Part shown: positions 14,973 through 24,111 of the stretch, one piece after another
How the letters are laid out: every line of letters begins with the position of its first letter
Numbering within the stretch: the first letter of the stretch is position 1
Source of the DNA: Candidatus Heimdallarchaeota archaeon
GTDB taxonomy: Archaea; Asgardarchaeota; Heimdallarchaeia; JABLTI01
Direction of reading: 5' to 3'
Assembly (NCBI GenBank): GCA_018238155.1
Contig: JABCTZ010000011.1
Span: 1-64,000, forward strand
DNA: 64,000 nt
Notes under the pieces: generated by a model
Told to the model about the DNA's origin: nothing
What the model saw: the letters and a program-made list of their open reading frames with translations, nothing else
Databases searched by the model: none
Made by a program: the position numbers and the translations under genes

Positions 14973-15088
14973 TGCCGAAGAGGGGATTTGAACCCCCGAG
15001 CGTTTGCACGCAGTGGTTGACTCGAGAGAAAAGGTTCTCGACCTATGGTTTTCGAGACCACCGCCATACCGGGCTAGGCTACCTCGGC
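14973..15088 (-). tRNA. tRNA-Ser(CGA) with 32-nt intron at 37/38 (15019-15050)
   Basis: GCCGAGG acceptor, GTGGT-CTCGAA|intron|A-ACCAC, CTCG/CGAG central helix, long variable arm. Confidence 0.9.
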
Positions 15089-15251: not shown

Positions 15252-15387
15252 GCGGAGGTAGCCCAGCTAGGTCAACGGCGAAGGACTTAAGATCCCCGAT
15301 CATGTAGATCGAGTAAAACCTCAGGGCCAGATGGAATAGGAAATCCTTTCCTGTAGAGGTTCGTGTGTTCGAATCGCACTCTCCGCA
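15252..15387 (+). tRNA. tRNA-Leu(UAA) with 51-nt intron at 37/38 (15292-15342)
   Basis: GCGGAGG acceptor, AAGGA-CTTAAG|intron|A-TCCTT, CTTA/TAGG BHB helix. Confidence 0.92.
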
Positions 15388-15714
15388 TCATTTCTTTCCC
15401 CACCCAAGCTGTTTTTGTCTTTGGCTTTTTCTCCCTTGTGTTGCTTACTCTTTTGCTGGTCTTTTCCGTTATTTTTCCGTCCCTTTTCTCTCTGTCTCCA
15501 ACCCTTTTTTCGTCCTTTTTTTCTTCTGGTTGCTAACCTCTCCCTCTTTCTTTTCTTCTCTGTCGTTTTTTCTGTTCTTCTTTTCCCTTTTCCTTCTGGT
15601 TGCCTACTTTTCGTTCTTGGTTGGAGACTCCTTGGTAGTTTTTATATTTCTTTTTCTACTTCTTCTTGGTGAATATTCTGTCCTCTTCCTTCTCAATCTA
15701 AATGGTTTGACTCT

Positions 15715-16587
15715 TTGACCCACAGTATTCCTTCCTTTGAATTCTATCCTAAACGTTTTCTCTCTTCCGAGGAGAAGGAGTTCGTTCTCTGGTTGCAGTC
15801 TTTTCGTATTCACGATCATTATCAGCTCATTTCCGGCTTTGCTCTTGCTTCCAAGGTCAAGGAGCTTTGGTCTTGGCTTCTTGATGGTGTCAGCGTTTCC
15901 ACTCTTCAGAAGCATCTTGTCCGTTTGACCGCTTCCTCTTCCCGTCATAACAAGAGTTATCTTAATCGTGAGTTTCGTTTGAGCAATGGTCGCCCTTTTG
16001 GTCTTTGGTTGTTTCGCAAAGGTCTTATCCGTGGCTATTCCCTTCCTCAAGCTGGTGTTCGCCGTATCGTTCATTATGGTTATCCTGTTAATCGCTATCC
16101 TTTGGTTATGAAAAATTTCGTTTCCCCTTTTCCCCCTCACAATTTTTTCGCTTCCCTCTGCTCTTCCTCTCTTCAGTCTGACCTTGGTTCCAATGTCCTT
16201 CGTAAGGTCGATCCTCATAAATATTCTATTCCCCATAGTGATGGTTCTGGTCACTATGTCGTTGACAATTGCTATGCTTTTCATTATCGCGGTCGTGAGC
16301 ACTATCTTTGGCAAGAAGTCCATACTGGTACCGAAGGTTATGATTCGAAAATTTTTTTGAAACACCTCATTACCATGGAGCATTATCTCAATTCCACTCA
16401 GAACGGTTTCTATGTTGTCTTTCTCCCCTTCGTCCGCGACCTTACCCTCCGTGCTGAACCCGCTATTTCCCGCCTTTCCTCTCTCTCTCCTTCTACAAGT
16501 CCTCTTCGTCGTTGTTTCGTCATTCCCTATACTCATATTCCCCTTTTCAAAGAACGCTTAGGTTTTTATCGTCATCAGACACGATAA
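15715..16587 (+). CDS. Replication-relaxation (Replic_Relax/MOBC-like) PD-(D/E)xK protein with N-terminal wHTH
   Basis: PHNF...VVDNCY...LWQEVHTGTE...FLKHL resembles the H...pD...lEvDrgTE...K motif; coherent T/C third-position bias. Confidence 0.55.
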   Translation: MTHSIPSFEFYPKRFLSSEEKEFVLWLQSFRIHDHYQLISGFALASKVKELWSWLLDGVSVSTLQKHLVRLTASSSRHNKSYLNREFRLSNGRPFGLWLFRKGLIRGYSLPQAGVRRIVHYGYPVNRYPLVMKNFVSPFPPHNFFASLCSSSLQSDLGSNVLRKVDPHKYSIPHSDGSGHYVVDNCYAFHYRGREHYLWQEVHTGTEGYDSKIFLKHLITMEHYLNSTQNGFYVVFLPFVRDLTLRAEPAISRLSSLSPSTSPLRRCFVIPYTHIPLFKERLGFYRHQTR

Positions 16588-16597
16588 TATTTGAGCA

Positions 16598-16873
16598 TTA
16601 TTTCTTTCCTCGTATGAACTCGTATGCTTGTTGTATCATCTCTGCATTAATGGTCTTCTTTTTTGAAAAATAGCATAGTTTGTCTGCCACTTTTGTTATC
16701 TCTTCCGCGAACTCATAGATGATGTTTTTCAACTGTAGTGCAGCATCACTTGCTACATACTTTTCCTTTGCATGGATCTTTATTATCCACTTGAACGGTG
16801 CGAGCGGAAAATTGGGATCATCGTCTTTCTTCTTTATAGCATTTAATAACTCAAGTGAAATTATATCAGTCAT
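16598..16873 (-). CDS. Divergent archaeal histone-fold protein
   Basis: FPLAPFKWIIK...VASDAA..L...AEEITKVA...KKKTINAEMIQQA aligns to HMf/CBFD-NFYB pattern. Confidence 0.8.
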   Translation of the reverse strand: MTDIISLELLNAIKKKDDDPNFPLAPFKWIIKIHAKEKYVASDAALQLKNIIYEFAEEITKVADKLCYFSKKKTINAEMIQQAYEFIRGKK

Positions 16874-17245
16874 CTTTCTAACACAAAAGATAGTTTAGAA
16901 GTTAGATTAAAAAGTCAACATAAAAGAAGAATTCTCGAGACGAAAAAGGAGAAAATCGAGAAGAACAAAGAAATGCGTGCTCTCACAAACAATGCGAGGC
17001 ACAGTTCTATGCCAGAGGCAAAACTGTGTAGGCTCAAATTATTTTATCTCTTGACCTGACCTATCAAGTTTTTAATTTGTTTAAAGAAAAAGCTACAATG
17101 ATGTTTAAACAGACAGCTATAAAATACTTCAAAAATGAATATGAAATTGCTAAGAAAGAGTATGGATTTTCCATTTGATTTATTTGAATTCCAAATAATA
17201 ATTATTGACTTTTACCAAAACCTTTTGGAGAAAAAAAGGGGGAAA

Positions 17246-18133
17246 TTATTGAAGAAGCGTTTCTTCAATACCCTTTACCGAATGAGCAATGTGTTTGAGA
17301 GAGATGATCAGTTCTTGTGCAGTATCGCTGATCCTTTTAAGACATGCAAGTAACTTCTCTCGGTTGCCTTCATGAAGAGCGATATAATTGGGGGAGTTGA
17401 GTTTATAGCCAAAGTGATCAAGGACAACATAAGCGACTGCTTCTGCTTCCAGCTCGTTGATCTTTCTCCGGTCAGCGGTTCGCAATTCCTTGGGATGCAT
17501 TAGTTCGTGAGCAAACTCATGAGCCAATGTAGATGCTTGTCCGAGGGGAGTCATCCCTTCTTTCAGCTCTATTGTCCCTAAACCGCTTGTCCCCTGTGCA
17601 GTGAGTTCTTTAGTCACTACCGTAGTGTTGCATTGGTCGGCGTATACATTAAAATAAGCTATTAATTCTTGTCCACCATCGCCTTTATTGATCCATACAG
17701 GTTCTTCCGGAAGTGGTTCACCATCGGTCTGTTTTATGTCGAAGACATAGACCGCTCGGAAATAGATCCCTTTTTCGGTGACTTCCTCGCCTGTTCGGTC
17801 ATCGAGACGTTTCTTCTCGTATGTGCATGGTGCTAAGATAGCAATTCCTTTCTCACCTTTTCTTACGAATCGGTTGAGTTTTTTCCACTTGTTGATTCTG
17901 ACAACTTTTTGAGGGGTGTATCCAGCAACAAGGGAAGCGTTCGGTTGCTGACATAGGATTAACAGAATATTGTTGTAGGAGTATTTGTGGAACTTGGACA
18001 TCAATTGGAGATGTTTTTGCATTTCCTCTGATATACGAGCTTTTTCAGTCTGGTTGGCAAGTTCGTCGATAGCGTCTGTTATTTGCTCTTTGAGATCAGC
18101 TTGTTTTTGGGTCCAATCTTTTTTTGCAGTTAT
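17246..18133 (-). CDS. ArdC-like ssDNA-binding/antirestriction protein with zincin domain; probable ATA start at 18133
   Basis: YSYNNILLI..Q...VAGY..W...R.VRKGEKG, VFDIKQT, HEFAHE, ELEAEAVA; frame open up to an AAGGAGGT RBS. Confidence 0.85.
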   Translation of the reverse strand: MTAKKDWTQKQADLKEQITDAIDELANQTEKARISEEMQKHLQLMSKFHKYSYNNILLILCQQPNASLVAGYTPQKVVRINKWKKLNRFVRKGEKGIAILAPCTYEKKRLDDRTGEEVTEKGIYFRAVYVFDIKQTDGEPLPEEPVWINKGDGGQELIAYFNVYADQCNTTVVTKELTAQGTSGLGTIELKEGMTPLGQASTLAHEFAHELMHPKELRTADRRKINELEAEAVAYVVLDHFGYKLNSPNYIALHEGNREKLLACLKRISDTAQELIISLKHIAHSVKGIEETLLQ

Positions 18134-18258
18134 CGGATAGACCTCCTTAGGTTTTGGTTTATAAAGTCAATAATTAACAAGAAGTGAGAAGGGGAATATA
18201 AAAAGACAGAGAAGCGAAAAAGATATACACTGTGAAAGAAATAACAGATAATGTTTAA

Positions 18259-19020
18259 GTGTGGAGAAAGAAAATGGAATTATTAGATTTTTATTATATG
18301 GGTATTAATTTTGCGTATTGTTTACAGATATTATTTTTTACTCGAAAAGGTGTAACAGTTCCAATTTATGGCAAAGGTGGACTTTTATCAGCTTTTGTGG
18401 TTATTCGTTCTTTATTAGAAAAAAATAGAATTTCAAATAGAGCTCAAAGAGGAATAAAAAAAGAAATCGAATATCTAAAAGACAATTATACTGAAGAAAA
18501 ATCATTTTTAACCTTAATTGATGCAGAAAAGATAGATGGAAAAGTTATCTCTTGGAAAGAATTAGTAATGGATGAGTTGGAAAAGATAGTAGTTTTTAGA
18601 GCAGTTGCTGATGGAATATTAAATTCTAACAGATTATGTGAAGGAGCTAAAATTTTTTTCCAAAATAAAATTTGGAGAAAACTACCAAAGATAATTAAGG
18701 ATGACTTAGAAGAATCAACTAAGTGCCTTATAACAGAATCTTGGACCGCTTCTGGTTTAATGTCCATGAGAGCTCTTGAATCTGGAGTAAAAAAATATTA
18801 CACAAAAATTACTGGCATTTCTGCTGATGGAAAAACTTTTGGTGCAATGTTGGGAGAATTAAGAAATAATTCTAACGCAGATTCAAAATTGATTGGTTAT
18901 CTTGACTTCCTGAAAGATATTCGAAATGATTTAGCACATCCAAATAATCGAATAAAACAATCAGATGCAGAACAGGTATTCCAACATACCATACAAGTTT
19001 TGAGTATTTTCTTTGTTTAA
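18259..19020 (+). CDS. HEPN (DUF4145-like) domain protein
   Basis: MRALE...IRNDLAHP (RxxxxH) in C-terminal half. Confidence 0.7.
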   Translation: MWRKKMELLDFYYMGINFAYCLQILFFTRKGVTVPIYGKGGLLSAFVVIRSLLEKNRISNRAQRGIKKEIEYLKDNYTEEKSFLTLIDAEKIDGKVISWKELVMDELEKIVVFRAVADGILNSNRLCEGAKIFFQNKIWRKLPKIIKDDLEESTKCLITESWTASGLMSMRALESGVKKYYTKITGISADGKTFGAMLGELRNNSNADSKLIGYLDFLKDIRNDLAHPNNRIKQSDAEQVFQHTIQVLSIFFV

Positions 19021-19159
19021 GAAGAAATATAAAAGAACAAATTTTGATTAGAGAACACTTAGAATTAAAAATTGGGAGTATGAAAGCATTTTCTGTTATT
19101 GAAATTTCTTGGTTTTAACATGATTTTTGTTACTATAAAAAAGAAAGGAAAGAATGGAC

Positions 19160-19516
19160 TCAATCAAGGCCAATATGGCCTATGAGTTCACTCATACATA
19201 GGAAACTAAATAGTTCCTCAAGTTCCCAGCCGGTAAGTGTTCTGTTTATGGCGGATTTTTTTTGAACTGAGCGGAAATTATATCGTAAGATGTAGTCGAC
19301 TTTTATCCACGCATGTGTTGAAAAATAGAAACCGATTTTCTGTTTTGCAACATTGATTAGACATTTTTCTTGCCGGAAATAGACTCTAAAGCTTGTTACA
19401 GCTTGTCTATAGGAGAGAACCAAGGACTTACATAGATCCTTTTCTCTTTCGCGAAGATATTCCTGTAAGAATGCTTCTTCTTCAGGATTCTTACTTATTT
19501 CTATAGCTTGTGTCAT
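19160..19516 (-). pseudogene. Tyrosine recombinase/integrase remnant (N-terminal SAM-like part, catalytic domain lost)
   Basis: FLQEYL...SYRQAVTSF..YF core-binding pattern, RTLTGWELEELF linker, MSELI vestige of RxSEL; GAGGT RBS. Confidence 0.6.
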
Positions 19517-19643
19517 GTTAATGTACCTCATATTTCAATGTATAATGCTTTCAAACTTACAAAGAAGTAAGATTTAAACTATAAAAAGATAGAAAAATAG
19601 ACGACGAACCGATGCTCAAGTTAATTTTTTGAGGTACATTAAC
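19517..19643. repeat. Perfect 14-bp inverted repeat flanking a 99-bp TATA-containing segment
   Basis: GTTAATGTACCTCA (19517-19530) / TGAGGTACATTAAC (19630-19643). Confidence 0.9.
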
Positions 19644-19690
19644 TTCTTTGGTACATCGGTGTCGCTGTTAGCAAGTACTAACCGTTACTA

Positions 19691-20625
19691 TTAAACGAAG
19701 CGTTTTCTTTTTTTCTTGGTTCGCAGAACAGAAATTAGTATTATGGATGCCAGAGTTACAATTATCATTGAATTCTTATTTGATAAATCAAAGGAGGGAA
19801 AGAGGTTGTTGGTTAAAGGATAATCGGGATCATTAAGATAGCTCTCAGTCAAGTCATCTATGAAATCATTATCAGAATCCATCCACCCAGTGTGTAAAAC
19901 CGAACCTCTGAATGAATACCAAGGATTATCACCTGATTGAGAAACACCTGTTAGAGATAAGGAATAAACGAAATGGTCTGTAGAACAGATGAAAATTTCA
20001 GACAGATTATCATTATTAATATCAGCAATTAAAGGACTGGAAAAAATCATATTATCTGTTTTATACGACCAAATTTCTTTACCCATATAATCCAAACAAT
20101 AAAGATAATTATCATCGGAACCGCAAAGAACTTCCATAAATCCATCATTATTTAAATCAGCAATAGCTGGTGAAGAACGAATATTTCTCCAAGTATCATA
20201 AGACCATAATTCTCTACCAAGGTAATTAAGACAATAGATTTTATTATCTTCTGAACCAAAAATGATCTCTAACTTTTTATCCTGGTTGAGATTTGCTATT
20301 GCTGGAGAGGAATAAATATCACTACCTGTAAGAAATGACCATTCAATTTGACCATCAGAAGATAAACAATAAAACTTATTATCTGTAGAACCAAACAAGA
20401 TTTCAAAATCGCCATCTAAATCTATATCAGCGATTGTTGGTGATACAAACACAGAACCTGATGTTTTAAAAGACCAAATTTCATTCCCTTTTAAGTCAAT
20501 ACAATAGAGATAGTTATCGTCTGATCCGAACACTATCTCAAGTTCATTATCATTATTAATGTCCCAGACAGCAGGTGTAGATCGAATATCATCATTGGCT
20601 TGAAATGTCCAAATGGTTTCTCCCA
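19691..20625 (-). pseudogene. 5'-truncated FG-GAP/PQQ-like beta-propeller surface protein with C-terminal TM + basic tail
   Basis: Five repeats of SSPAIAD.N.D...EI.FGS.DN..YCL...G.E.WS; no signal peptide. Confidence 0.7.
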
Positions 20626-21197
20626 ATCGGTAACAACAATGATTCAATCATATCTTTTCTCTTTAAAAATTCATAACACAGTACTTCTAATTGTTCTGGT
20701 GCTAATGAATACACTGTATCTGGTAGTTCCTTTTCGTTGAATAGCTGTCTGATTACCTTTCCATATTTTCTTAGATTTACTATTGTTGATCCTCTTGGTT
20801 GTATCGCTCCCAATATTGGATACTTAATATAATGAAGTTCTTCTACATTTTTTAGCTGCATTGTTTTGAAAATTAGTTTCTCGTTTTTATACTCTAATTC
20901 CTCGTACTCTATTTTCGTTCCTTCTTCTATTTCCCCCAGCAATAATTTATTTCTATGTAATTGTCGGTAAACTGCTACGATTATTGCTCCTTTTTCCCTA
21001 CATTCTTTAAACCTATTCAATGCTGGCTTTACTCCTCTTTGAATGCTCTCTGAGTAATCTTTTGGATCAATACTTTTTACATTCTCATAATGAATGCCTA
21101 TCTTTCGATTATCCCATAGATATGTTAAGATATCATATCTATTGCTCAATTTGTGTCTAATAAAAATAACAGGTTTCGTTTCAGTCATAATTCTCAA
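20592..21197 (-). pseudogene. 3'-truncated restriction-endonuclease-like (Mrr-type) gene
   Basis: Ends LAPEQLEVLCYEFL...PIGR just where the catalytic D motif would follow, then runs into the propeller repeat. Confidence 0.5.
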
Positions 21198-21349
21198 CCT
21201 TTCCTATTTTGAAAGAAACTCTTCTCCTTTTCCAATTTAATTATTCTTAATTCGTACATATTCATTCTTATCTTCTTTCTTACTCGCTTTTTCTCATTAG
21301 CAATTCTTTTAATATCCCAATTCCCGTTCTCATTACGGGGATAGTAGTA

Positions 21350-21892
21350 TTGAATACCGATAAAAAATGGTTAATTATTTCGCTATTAGGTTTAAGTTTG
21401 CTTTTTGTAACTATTTTTGCACCATTTATTAGTTATAAATGGGATGATGGAATAAACATTCATGAAGAGTATGTTTATTTTGATGGTGATTGGAAAATTA
21501 TCGATATTGATTCATCTGGTGAAACTGTGGTTGTTGGTGATTTTCAAGATTGGGAAGGGCATTTTCTTCTTAGCAGTCCCATACTTCTTTTAATTGGAAT
21601 TGGTATCACTATAATAGCAAGTTTTGCATTAATTTTTGAAATAAACAATCTTTGGAAAACATCTTTTCGAGTTATTAATTTATTAGGTTCATCCCTCGGT
21701 TTTATAGGAGCTATGCTTTATGTGCCATTTGCCATTTATGTTGTTCAAATAAATTATATTACTTTCTCAGTCACTGCAGGTTTTGTTATTGAAACACTGG
21801 CACTTCTTTTCATTGCACTCTTTAATGGTTATTGTCTATTTGGCACTATTGTAAAAAATCACGAAAAAAGATTAGAGAGAAAAAGTATGTAA
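21350..21892 (+). CDS. Hypothetical 4-TM membrane protein
   Basis: Four hydrophobic segments. Confidence 0.7.
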   Translation: MNTDKKWLIISLLGLSLLFVTIFAPFISYKWDDGINIHEEYVYFDGDWKIIDIDSSGETVVVGDFQDWEGHFLLSSPILLLIGIGITIIASFALIFEINNLWKTSFRVINLLGSSLGFIGAMLYVPFAIYVVQINYITFSVTAGFVIETLALLFIALFNGYCLFGTIVKNHEKRLERKSM

Positions 21893-21920
21893 AGTAGTTT
21901 TTTCTTCATTTATTACACTT

Positions 21921-21941
21921 GTAAGTCGCTACATTTTTATC
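21921..21941 (+). repeat. 21-bp direct repeat, copy 1
   Basis: GTAAGTCGCTACATTTTTATC, identical to 24047-24067. Confidence 0.9.
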
Positions 21942-21981
21942 AAAATAAAAATAAAAAAGTGAAGCAGTTATTATCTGCAGA

Positions 21982-23871
21982 TTATCCTCTCTTTACTCGT
22001 TTTTCAAGTGTTCGCCAAATAATGACCGTTGCAATACCAAATAAAGTCACTATTGAAATTGAGTCTATTCCTATAATATAGGAGCCGTTATTTGTAGTTA
22101 CTGAGTTTAAGATTATTGTTGATATCCTAACGTTTCCTACTTTATCATAAGCATATAGTACAAAAACTTTAGTTACTAGTATTTTTGAATATTGATGTAG
22201 ATAATAAAAAATACTCTGATCAATATTTCTCTTAACAATACTAGTTACAGTGTGATTTGTATACTGAAAGGGTATGAGGGTATTGATACTATTATTACAA
22301 GGCGAGAAAATTGATGAATTATTAATTACGAATTTTGAATCCACAAATCCAGAAAGCTCATCTTTTATGATAATTTGTAATAGAAAATATTTCTCAGTTT
22401 TATGACTAGCAGTGAATGTAAAATTGTTATCTATTGCTTTGAACTGATTATTAACAAAAACACTATTATCAGCAAATACTGTTTCATTTCCAGTAGCATA
22501 GAATGTTTCAAGCATAGGCGTTTCAGTATCATCAATGGTACCAAATTCAGAACAGTATTGCCCAAGGAGTTTTGTCAAGTAAAATAAATAACCTTTAATT
22601 GAACAATATTGACTAGAATAAAGTCTATCTAGAAGTAGATATGTTTGTGTTGAATAGTCCATGGTATATCTATCTAATTCAGATGAATAGTAACATATTG
22701 AGAAGTAGTAATTCATTATTTTCCTTTGAATTGTCGGATAGTTTTCTTCAGGGTAATATTCATCTAAAACTTCCATTAATCCAAACAAGTCAAAGATATT
22801 GTAATAAATATAGACGCTTCCATAAATATCATTTTTGAGATAATCATAGAGTTCTTGTGAAGCAATTATAGGTTGTAGTAAATCAACTCCCATATTTGAG
22901 AATAATAAACTAATACCGAAATCTGTTATTTCCTTTGCATAGCTATTATTATAATCAACTAAATCTAGTGCTATTGCAAACTTATAACCTTCCCAATCAT
23001 CATCATTAGTGAACTCCTTATTGTTCCAAAGATTATCTATAACTGATTCACCAAAAGTAACAAGAGAACTATTAGAAAATTCTTCACCAGCTTCAATACA
23101 TAATAATCCATAAGCTGCTGATGAATACCAATTAGAGAAGGTTACTGTTGAAAGACTATCGATTTGTTTTTGGATTGTTGTTATTAGTAATGAAGTATTA
23201 AATGAATAATCTAGCCATTTCAATGCAGATCTTAGGTTGCTGATACTAGAGTAGTTTTTACCGTAATCAAAAGATCTACCAACTATTTTACCACTAATTT
23301 CTCGTAAGAGTAATGTATTAAGTGAAGCATTAATGAACTTCTCAATTGTTCCTACTTTTGTTATTTCTATTGAAAAATCTCATGAATAGTATTTAGTAGA
23401 TGCATTTAATGAATCAACTAGACTAAACAGTAAAAATTCTGTGAGATATGGAGTATAATAATTTAGATAGTTTGGATCAAAAATTAGAAGAGAACCATTA
23501 AATTCAGTTGGAGTTGAAACAGCTATCTCTCTAACTGAGGGACTCAAGTATTCCTCTTTATTTATCGCTAGTTCTTCTGACCAATACTTTGCGTTAGTTA
23601 CTACATCAATAAATGCTGAATGAAATTTGGTTTCATTATAATCATCGGTCAATAAATCCTGCGTATATAGCTGATCAACAAACATAGCAAACCAATCACT
23701 ATACGAGGAACTGTTTATTATAGATTGATTTTTAATTGAAACAGTTAATTGAACATTACTCTCACCATTCAATTCAATTTTCACTAAACCAAAATTCAAA
23801 ATTATTAATATTAATAAGAAAAATATTTTTCGTCTGAAATAACTTCTCCGAAATAAAACTTTAATCATCAA
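21982..23871 (-). pseudogene. Secreted, C-terminally anchored protein split by one in-frame TGA (23380-23382)
   Basis: ORFs 23380..23871 and 21982..23223 are in one frame with 52 open codons between; N-terminal signal peptide and C-terminal TM + basic tail. Confidence 0.8.
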
Positions 23872-24046
23872 AGATTAATTGAATTGATTGCATAAATAAA
23901 GGTTATGTTTCCCACACAAGTACCTTGAGTTAACTCGTGGAACTTTTTCTATTGAGCGCAAACTTAGTATTATAGACAGATTGTTGAACAAAAGTAAGAG
24001 CATAAAATGTGAACTTTAGATTATCTTTTTCCTCTTTTTTACCTTA

Positions 24047-24067
24047 GTAAGTCGCTACATTTTTATC
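24047..24067 (+). repeat. 21-bp direct repeat, copy 2, overlapping probable enolase BRE/TATA
   Basis: GTAAGTCGCTACATTTTTATC about 45 nt before eno start. Confidence 0.9.
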
Positions 24068-24111
24068 TAAAATTAATTAATTTTGATTAGAATAGAATTG
24101 GTGTTGGTAAT

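Follow-up and report, generated by a model that had tools for sequence, protein, structure and literature searches.

Strong strand-specific biases at synonymous and noncoding sites, independent of gene orientation, are found in single-stranded DNA (ssDNA) phages, in which the coding strand is T-rich and A-poor, and in genomes that replicate by strand displacement such as vertebrate mitochondrial DNA. The origins of transfer of MobC-type relaxases consist of repeats and an inverted repeat located beside the relaxase gene. For Asgard archaea, mobile elements and mechanisms of DNA transfer are, to our knowledge, almost unknown. Replic_Relax is a family of PD-(D/E)xK proteins that are usually fused to helix-turn-helix (HTH) domains (PMC3424549), and proteins matching its Pfam model PF13814 are recognized as MobC relaxases by CONJscan (PMC5357655). 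The purine loading of bacterial genes has been interpreted as an escape from Rho termination (PMC13323073). Here, we analyzed a stretch of 64,000 nt (contig JABCTZ010000011.1; hereafter the window) from the genome of a Candidatus Heimdallarchaeota archaeon and describe a new, genus-restricted cassette that is built around a remotely Replic_Relax-like protein and displays a striking strand-specific loss of adenine.

The cassette comprises a pyrimidine-rich leader, a gene for a protein with a winged-helix-like part and a PD-(D/E)xK nuclease fold, and usually a convergent histone-fold gene, and spans approximately 1.2–1.5 kb. We delimit the unit in this way because the DNA that distant copies have in common extends from the leader to the start of the histone gene and so spans all three components. 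New here are the extremity of the pyrimidine-ending codon usage, a leader with four phased repeats, an inverted repeat and a single TATA box, and a convergent histone gene with a mirror-image skew. Together, 97% pyrimidine-ending four-fold codons and a mirror bias in the opposite gene amount to an unusually clean strand-specific force on about 1.5 kb of chromosome, through which the contributions of mutation and selection to codon usage could be told apart; in addition, the cassette defines an orphan family of winged-helix-like plus PD-(D/E)xK proteins, remotely similar to MobC relaxases, in Asgard archaea.

An Adenine-Poor Block Downstream of a tRNA Gene

The first-pass annotation of the window, made from the letters alone, had drawn attention to an extreme depletion of adenine between positions 15388 and 16590. 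This block consists of 15.4% A, 26.9% C, 15.8% G, and 41.9% T, compared with means of 34.9%, 15.8%, 16.0%, and 33.3%, respectively, for the whole window, and its GC content is 43% versus 32% in the host. An exact recount of positions 15421–15600, where only six adenines in 180 nt had been reported, agrees with that observation (A 6, C 53, G 20, T 101). When the window was scanned at four scales (180, 330, 870, and 1,200 nt), the lowest A fraction of the 64 kb always lay inside the block, whereas the minimum outside it at the same scales was 16.7–24.7%. An assembly artefact, a concern raised at the outset, is excluded by the recurrence of the A-poverty in two further copies in this genome as well as in independent assemblies from ENA, JGI, NCBI, and Logan.

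Both borders of the block turned out to be less simple than first described. The block does start at 15388, immediately after the 3' end of a tRNA gene, but the cassette proper probably begins only near 15400 because roughly the first 12 nt of the block (CATTTCTTTCC) look like the native trailer that follows the tRNA in cassette-free relatives. At the other border, the strong skew stops at the stop codon as had been noted, whereas a weaker mirror-image skew runs on into the convergent histone gene.

Scanning the 4.08-Mb genome revealed seven 300-nt windows in which A or T makes up 12% or less, and three of these are copies of the nuclease-like gene family. The remaining four (on contigs C1, C8, C13, and C16) consist of low-complexity or repetitive sequence with several open frames and are most likely antisense strands of purine-rich repeat genes unrelated to the cassette family. 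Besides the cassette family, this genome-wide scan found no nonrepetitive locus of comparable composition in the 4-Mb genome. One strand of positions 165050–166900 of C13 (in the window genome, G000) contains 13–20% A over more than 1.5 kb and several open frames; this strand is probably antisense to a long low-complexity gene rich in purines and is not part of the cassette family.

The Skew Follows the DNA Strand

The preference for T- and C-ending four-fold codons is stronger than first described: 145 of the 149 four-fold codons of the nuclease-like open reading frame (ORF) in the window end in a pyrimidine (NNY; 97%), and the only one ending in G is a single TCG. Arginine is encoded by CGY in 22 of 23 cases and never by AGR, ATA is absent, and G is favored over A in the two-fold purine boxes. 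The resulting third-position frequencies are A 0.07, C 0.27, G 0.12, and T 0.55 versus 0.38, 0.11, 0.11, and 0.40 in the host. The amino acid composition is displaced toward residues with pyrimidine-rich codons, with His, Arg, Tyr, Ser, Pro, and Phe increased and Lys, Glu, Ile, and Asn decreased.

Whether all homologues share the skew was a question that the first-pass annotation had left to be checked. In most copies they do, the A fraction being 0.07–0.16 in the leader and the third-position A fraction (A3) of the ORF 0.06–0.16; however, about one-third of the copies, for example those of the L009/L014/L040/L041 clade, have a near-normal ORF composition with an A3 of 0.21–0.30. Along the ORF, the mean A3 of successive thirds is 0.13, 0.14, and 0.26 (21 copies).

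The convergent histone genes show the reciprocal pattern. Their third-position T fraction (T3) is 0.02–0.09 in copies L003, L017, L045, and L049 and 0.19–0.22 in the window. By comparison, the two chromosomal histone genes of the host have a T3 of 0.37, host values are 0.37–0.40, and every long ORF of the genome reaches at least 0.14. In L017, the depletion of A extends from the leader to the start of the histone gene. The skew thus follows the DNA strand across noncoding DNA and two oppositely oriented genes, and because the convergent histone genes carry a mirror-image depletion of T it belongs to the strand and not to one mRNA. Explanations resting only on the sense mRNA or its decoding are therefore ruled out. 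The strand-specific process that had been proposed from the window alone stands to the extent that the skew tracks the DNA strand and is a family trait, and it leaves both mutation and selection in play. The more specific suggestion of adenine-directed A-to-G mutagenesis does not fit and was rejected, as third-position G remains at the host level (0.12 vs. 0.11) and the lone TCG is the single G-ending codon among the four-fold codons.

The Leader and the Convergent Genes

The coordinates of the cassette features are listed in table 1. Two copies of the 11-mer CTTCTGGTTGC had been noted at 15523 and 15593; both are present, and they constitute two of four phased sites of the GTTGC type. These four sites, which read GTTGC[TCA][TA]AC or GTTGGAGAC, start at 15440, 15529, 15599, and 15620, and the purines of the leader are concentrated in them. 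In L039, the protein of which is 65% identical and the leader of which becomes homologous at the word CCCCACCC, the sites are spaced exactly as in the window, at 89, 70, and 21 nt. The pair GGTTGGAGACTC...TTTTTATA is conserved in L007, which has the same inverted-repeat arms (9 bp, 29 nt apart), and occurs in L039 as the variant GGTTGGGTACTC. The repeat words are clade-specific; in L011, for example, GTTGAGCACTT is present three times together with inverted copies. Judged from these sequences, the leader repeats are arranged like operator or iteron arrays, which evolve together with the DNA-binding protein that recognizes them. The leader contains eight runs of at least five T and none of at least five A, and the TTTTATA columns are invariant in an alignment of four leaders.

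Table 1. Positions of the cassette features and of the flanking tRNA gene in the window
Feature	Position	Strand	Remarks
Intron-containing tRNA, most likely tRNA-Leu(UAA)	15252..15387	+	Rfam RF00005, 34.2 bits, 54-nt insertion; flank, outside the cassette
Pyrimidine-rich leader	15400..15714	+	About 8% A, 80% pyrimidine, 315 nt
Repeat 1 GTTGCTTAC	15440..15448	+	Candidate protein-binding site
Inverted repeat, left arm GTCTCCAACC	15494..15503	+	10 bp, perfect
Repeat 2 GTTGCTAAC	15529..15537	+	Within the CTTCTGGTTGC copy at 15523
Repeat 3 GTTGCCTAC	15599..15607	+	Within the CTTCTGGTTGC copy at 15593
Repeat 4, also inverted repeat, right arm GGTTGGAGAC	15619..15628	+	Directly upstream of the TATA box
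TATA-like element TTTTATATTT	15640..15649	+	Only one in the leader; presumed promoter of the ORF, read from sequence
Winged-helix-like plus PD-(D/E)xK nuclease-fold gene	15715..16587	+	290 aa; frame open from 15673
Convergent histone-fold gene, second gene of the cassette	16598..16873	-	PF00808, E 7.6e-11; stop-to-stop gap 10 nt

The histone-fold gene, which had initially been treated separately, belongs to the unit. In approximately 15 copies, the ORF is followed by a related histone-fold gene in convergent orientation, the two stop codons being -3 to about 21 nt apart, and the similarity groups of the histone genes parallel those of the nuclease-like gene; L007 and L011 are without a histone partner and are still skewed. 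A complex prediction for the ORF protein and its histone partner gave a score of 0.01, which is evidence neither way. Just beyond the start of the histone gene is a 64-nt stretch (16968–17031) that recurs on C6 with 89% identity. There it lies approximately 0.8 kb past the histone gene belonging to the paralogous cassette, and it may represent a small repeat or a regulatory element common to both.

A Nuclease-Fold Protein Remotely Similar to Replic_Relax

We regard the 290-aa ORF as a real gene because its plus-strand frame is the only one that stays open in all 17 copies examined. An antisense ORF of 310 aa (15604–16536) was rejected as an artefact of the A depletion: it is open because an A-poor strand has few stop codons on either strand, and stop codons interrupt it in the other copies, most obviously where the composition is normal. 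The reading frame specifies the conserved N-terminal sequence PLPSQSKW... from 15673 onward, ahead of the first canonical start codon (TTG at 15715). The GTG at 15668 that matches the start of L007 is out of frame in the window copy, which may carry a small indel at this point or initiate at a noncanonical codon.

The ORF has no Pfam match in an hmmscan of the window proteins and no match in PADLOC or PHROGs, and a profile search of PDB sequences returned nothing below E 0.59. An index of 5.8 billion proteins contains 14 homologues, of which those that are named are hypothetical proteins of Candidatus Heimdallarchaeota, and an exhaustive search of 1.84 billion representative proteins with the family profile yielded 25 matches; P0029, a 5,126-aa protein from the profile search, was set aside as a low-complexity repeat protein. 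Among 41 related genomes, the gene is present in the window genome and in six of the ten others of its genus but in none of the 30 outside it. The proteins constitute a small orphan family that has so far been found in one Heimdallarchaeial genus.

A structural model built with AF2 from the family alignment (pLDDT 84.5, pTM 0.81) predicts a PD-(D/E)xK domain at residues ~140–285. VIA-align matched this domain to XisH (2okf) with a Z of 8.6 (root mean square deviation 3.4 Å over 116 residues), followed by Cdn1/Can2 (Z 8.3–8.4) and then by Bax1, BstEII, FokI, PaqCI, and many other restriction enzymes, on a scale on which a Z of 7–8 is the typical best score even for unrelated models and only the fold class is secure. 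In total, more than 40 of the top 50 matches are PD-(D/E)xK nucleases. Residues H142, H174, D184, E201, T204, and G205 are invariant and H203 and E207 nearly so, giving the motif W-x-E-V-H-T-G-S/T-E, and the model places D184, E201, and H203 at the ends of the strands 180–182/185–191 and 194–202. The predicted core thus has conserved acidic residues on its second and third strands, as is characteristic of the PD-(D/E)xK superfamily. When modeled alone, the N-terminal 135 residues had only winged-helix DNA-binding proteins as their top matches, weakly (Z up to 4.8), and the modeled architecture accordingly appears to be that of Replic_Relax, in which an HTH or winged-helix part precedes the nuclease domain.

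A resemblance to Replic_Relax/MOBC nicking enzymes had been suggested from the sequence, and at the level of fold it survives. In a comparison of language-model features, 79 of the 100 nearest named clusters are Replic_Relax (PF13814; score 0.93, 196 of 256 features in common), and an ESM Atlas cluster of PF13814 is among the nearest predicted structures (TM 0.44/0.47). Membership at the level of profile models did not follow: PF13814 matched neither the ORF nor 13 homologues in an hmmscan at E values up to 10, its profile had no match at E up to 10 in the six-frame translated genome, and none of the 25 family-profile matches among the 1.84 billion representatives is a Replic_Relax protein. 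It is reasonable to regard the likeness as a remote relationship, membership being given by no sequence test.

In both the cassette protein and Replic_Relax, an N-terminal HTH or winged-helix part is combined with a C-terminal PD-(D/E)xK domain (PMC3424549). In a possible parallel to MobC-type origins, the cassette gene adjoins repeats and an inverted repeat of its own, and an ArdC-like anti-restriction gene is located nearby. Unlike Replic_Relax/MobC systems, the cassette is found in an archaeal host without a coupling protein, type IV secretion, or an integrase partner; the third catalytic position of its protein is His and not Lys (E-V-H); and it has a histone-fold partner gene and an extreme strand skew. 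We know of no report of histone pairing or extreme strand skew for Replic_Relax genes. The core fold of residues ~140–285 is likewise shared with XisH (2okf), Can2/Cdn1, and type II restriction enzymes, but the cassette lacks the CARF/SAVED sensor, methyltransferase partner, and XisI partner of those systems.

Distribution and Mobility

Genomes that contain the family have one to four matches each, at differing loci, and copies within one genome share only 36–42% protein identity. The window genome carries two more copies, at C6:4750–5433 (L003) and C39:192078–192909 (L004), both of which are still A-poor; L003 is frameshifted before the conserved C-terminal KE.LGFY.H motif, and L004 is truncated and broken. 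In these comparisons, the cassette behaves as an insertion-polymorphic unit, with decayed copies, in Asgard genomes of the Heimdall group.

The idea that the locus marks an undescribed family of Asgard mobile elements can therefore be kept in the sense of an insertion-polymorphic unit at differing loci, but the hallmarks of the known element classes are missing. Among insertion sequence or transposon features, we found no near-identical copies, and direct repeats did not consistently flank the 12 copies compared. The window contains no second copy of the tRNA 3' end, the cassette has no integrase, and most copies are located away from tRNA genes, which does not agree with a tRNA-integrative element. 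Between the tRNA and the enolase gene, there is also no Pfam match for an integrase, a coupling protein, or a secretion gene, as would be expected in the context of a plasmid or of an integrative and conjugative (ICE) or mobilizable (IME) element; the neighbors of the ORF in the window are the histone-fold gene, an ArdC-N/M78 gene, a HEPN gene, and unannotated genes.

A 15-bp direct repeat, GCAT[C/T]ATTTCTTTCC, at 15385 and 16595 was considered as a target duplication around a 1,210-bp insertion and rejected. Its right copy corresponds to the conserved histone 3' end, a sequence that also occurs beside the L009/L014 copy, away from any tRNA gene, and its left copy resembles the native tRNA trailer of cassette-free relatives. 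A repeat of this quality arose in 15 of 200 shuffles under a wide search, a marginal level of significance, and in none of 200 under a narrow one, and no flanking repeats were seen at other copies. The repeat is best read as a coincidence of the native trailer with the conserved histone 3' end.

Origin of the Strand Skew

As the cause of the skew we favor, tentatively, a strand-specific exposure of ssDNA with a presumably mutational effect, an explanation that we hold to be possible and would rank first while stopping short of calling it probable. The cassette protein would bind the repeats of its own leader, which are candidate sites, and this binding may repress the promoter of the ORF, as we propose because the last repeat abuts the TATA box. 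By analogy with MobC-type relaxases acting on origins that consist of repeats plus an inverted repeat, the bound protein might also cut or nick the DNA at the leader. The pyrimidine-rich strand would repeatedly become single-stranded, either by nicking and strand displacement in situ or in an earlier rolling-circle or ssDNA replicon before integration, and the exposed strand would preferentially lose adenine, mainly by changes from A to T. We favor this explanation because it agrees with a skew that acts at the level of the strand and peaks on the 5' side, with the confinement of the skew to the cassette family, and with an excess in the A-to-T rate; in the substitution trio of L011, polarized by parsimony, the per-site rate of A-to-T changes is approximately seven times that of T-to-A changes.

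Several observations weigh against ssDNA exposure. No free, circular, or viral form was found, as a scan of viral contigs revealed no relative and 12 metagenome contigs have no terminal overlaps, and neither an HUH or other known rolling-circle initiator nor adjacent conjugation genes were detected. The sharp edges of the skew and the 97% of NNY codons demand a very strong and very local mutation bias on a chromosomal copy. Loss of adenine alone is insufficient because the window copy avoids both purines and is enriched in C, with about 50 inferred T-to-C changes in its trio. In addition, runs of at least five T on the sense strand are no commoner than in host genes despite the much higher T content, and because T runs are thus avoided selection seems to be shaping the sequence as well. 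Finally, third-position substitution counts are approximately balanced or directed toward A, and three of the four skewed trios show a net change toward A, counts that rest on parsimony polarization, which has a known bias toward common-to-rare changes and hence in that very direction.

A bolder form of the proposal sees in the cassette an integrated mobile replicon of an archaeal single-strand or rolling-circle type, minimal in size at 1.2–1.5 kb, in which a MobC-like PD-(D/E)xK nickase would replace the HUH initiator, a histone would be carried along, and the adenine loss would be the scar of an ssDNA phase; we consider this quite unlikely. As in the strand-skewed ssDNA replicons, the bias of the cassette tracks the DNA strand and not gene orientation. 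Unlike in those replicons, it is confined to 1.2–1.5 kb of chromosome and is far more extreme (A3 0.02–0.10, 97% NNY), and the cassette is not known to have an ssDNA form, a capsid gene, or an HUH initiator. If the replicon interpretation were true, the cassette would represent a new class of mobile DNA and the first such element in Asgard archaea.

The main rival to ssDNA exposure, although we judge it unlikely, is selection at the level of the transcript. The cassette would be transcribed as one minus-strand unit from the histone promoter into a U-poor RNA without oligo-U terminators, which would silence the potentially toxic nuclease in antisense. Transposases and type I toxins are controlled by antisense RNAs. 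The stop-to-stop gaps leave no room for a terminator, the skew of L017 is coextensive with leader, ORF, and histone gene, and antisense runs of at least five T occur at 1.5/kb in the family ORFs versus 5.8/kb in host genes, the coding strands of which are A-rich. Moreover, purine-rich RNAs of bacteria escape factor-dependent termination, whereas pyrimidine-rich antisense RNAs are terminated (PMC13323073); that study, however, concerns bacterial Rho and not archaea. Nor does the avoidance of U runs need a near-total removal of synonymous A, and the skew reaches its maximum at the end most distant from the histone promoter and persists in L007 and L011, in which there is no histone partner. Bacterial purine loading and the cassette have in common a strand-wide purine/pyrimidine asymmetry that is tied to the direction of transcription and constrains codon choice (PMC13323073), but the cassette gene is loaded oppositely, with a pyrimidine-rich sense strand, in an archaeal host that lacks Rho, and the phenomenon concerns one cassette and is not genome-wide. 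If transcript selection were nevertheless at work, the link between purine bias and termination would be extended to archaea. A variant in which the gene silences itself by terminators on the sense strand was rejected, the density of sense runs of at least five T being 2.96/kb versus 2.84/kb in host genes.

Selection on DNA structure and a purely foreign origin are weaker explanations. In the former, which is improbable, the homopyrimidine/homopurine duplex would be maintained for its scarcity of palindromes and restriction sites, for triplex or rigid tracts, or as a chromatin state read by the cassette's own histone, with the purines spelling out binding sites. Consistent with this, 4-bp palindromes occur in the block at 24/kb versus 63 ± 11 in host windows (host minimum 39), the leader purines cluster in the repeats, the cassette carries a divergent histone of its own, and TT autocorrelation has a weak periodicity of ~11–12 nt. 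That periodicity signal is very weak, however, 6-bp palindromes are within the host range, and about one-third of the copies function without a skewed ORF. The predicted single-strand folding energy is also ordinary (-18.0 per 100 nt vs. -19.8 ± 2.3 in the host), and selection for an unstructured RNA or ssDNA was rejected since the value lies within the host range.

A relic of foreign composition, acquired from a donor of that composition and slowly ameliorating with nothing strand-specific acting in the present hosts, is very unlikely. It would account for the elevated GC content, for copies that range from extreme to normal composition, for the host-like composition of old fragments such as L005, and for the net change toward A in three of the four skewed trios. 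Against it, no donor or relative outside the genus was found among the 1.84 billion representatives, and most copies are still skewed although their DNA is as little as 42–50% identical, which implies long maintenance. We know of no genome type with 97% NNY codon usage. Least likely of all is selection on the mRNA or its decoding, under which an A-poor message of NNY codons only would need no more than G34 tRNAs or resist adenosine-specific RNases of the HEPN type, so that the nuclease is made while other mRNAs or tRNAs are destroyed: the 145 of 149 NNY codons, the lack of AGR and ATA, the use of G over A in two-fold purine boxes, and the HEPN, MazE-like, and TIR genes near several copies are in its favor, but the most skewed part of the cassette is the leader upstream of the only TATA box, and the mirror-image bias of the convergent histone genes, with their U-poor mRNA, is not predicted by arguments from sense mRNA or tRNAs.

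Insertion Site and Neighboring Genes

The tRNA gene that precedes the cassette is overlooked by ARAGORN with default settings. When introns are allowed, ARAGORN reports Ser(UGA) with the intron placed within the anticodon, whereas a canonical 37/38 intron results in the anticodon UAA with discriminator A. We prefer Leu(UAA) because the genome has no other Leu(UAA), UUA is its commonest Leu codon, and an intron-less Ser(UGA) is already present. A second intron-containing tRNA, Ser(CGA), which default ARAGORN also misses, is located at 14973–15088 on the minus strand, divergent from tRNA-Leu.

Two close relatives, G001 and G009 (89–90% DNA identity), align with the window up to position 15397 and then diverge. 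In G001, the same tRNA is followed by a small ORF and enolase without a cassette, whereas in the window enolase is 8.7 kb from tRNA-Leu and the interval also holds the ArdC-N/M78 and HEPN genes. The interval between tRNA-Leu and enolase (15388–24111 in the window) is a variable island of 8.7 kb here, ~0.7 kb in G001, and ~4.7 kb in L007, and its gene content differs as well, with HEAT, MazE-like, and TIR genes in L007 and ArdC, HEPN, and beta-propeller genes in the window.

Adjacency to a tRNA had been put forward as a possible trait of the family but holds for one subclade only, in which three copies are flush with a tRNA 3' end, at tRNA genes whose counterparts in other genomes carry no cassette; other clades are elsewhere. 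L007, which is 67% identical in protein sequence, directly follows the same tRNA-Leu and has different downstream genes. L039 directly follows a different tRNA, the counterparts of which in the window genome (on C21 with an exact 3' end and on C15 with one mismatch) are unoccupied. A T/C-rich native trailer of 12–30 nt seems to precede the cassette each time. At L020 (G008:C143), a tRNA-Leu(CAG) at 2357–2441 is encoded on the other strand, ~200 nt downstream of the ORF, a proximity unlike that in the window clade.

The region of the window that resembles ArdC-N/M78 anti-restriction genes (17198–18100) is repeated in the same genome at C11:65658–66082 (96%) and C4:432–753 (93%) and is likewise repeated in G009. 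Because of this repetition, it probably belongs to another multi-copy element.

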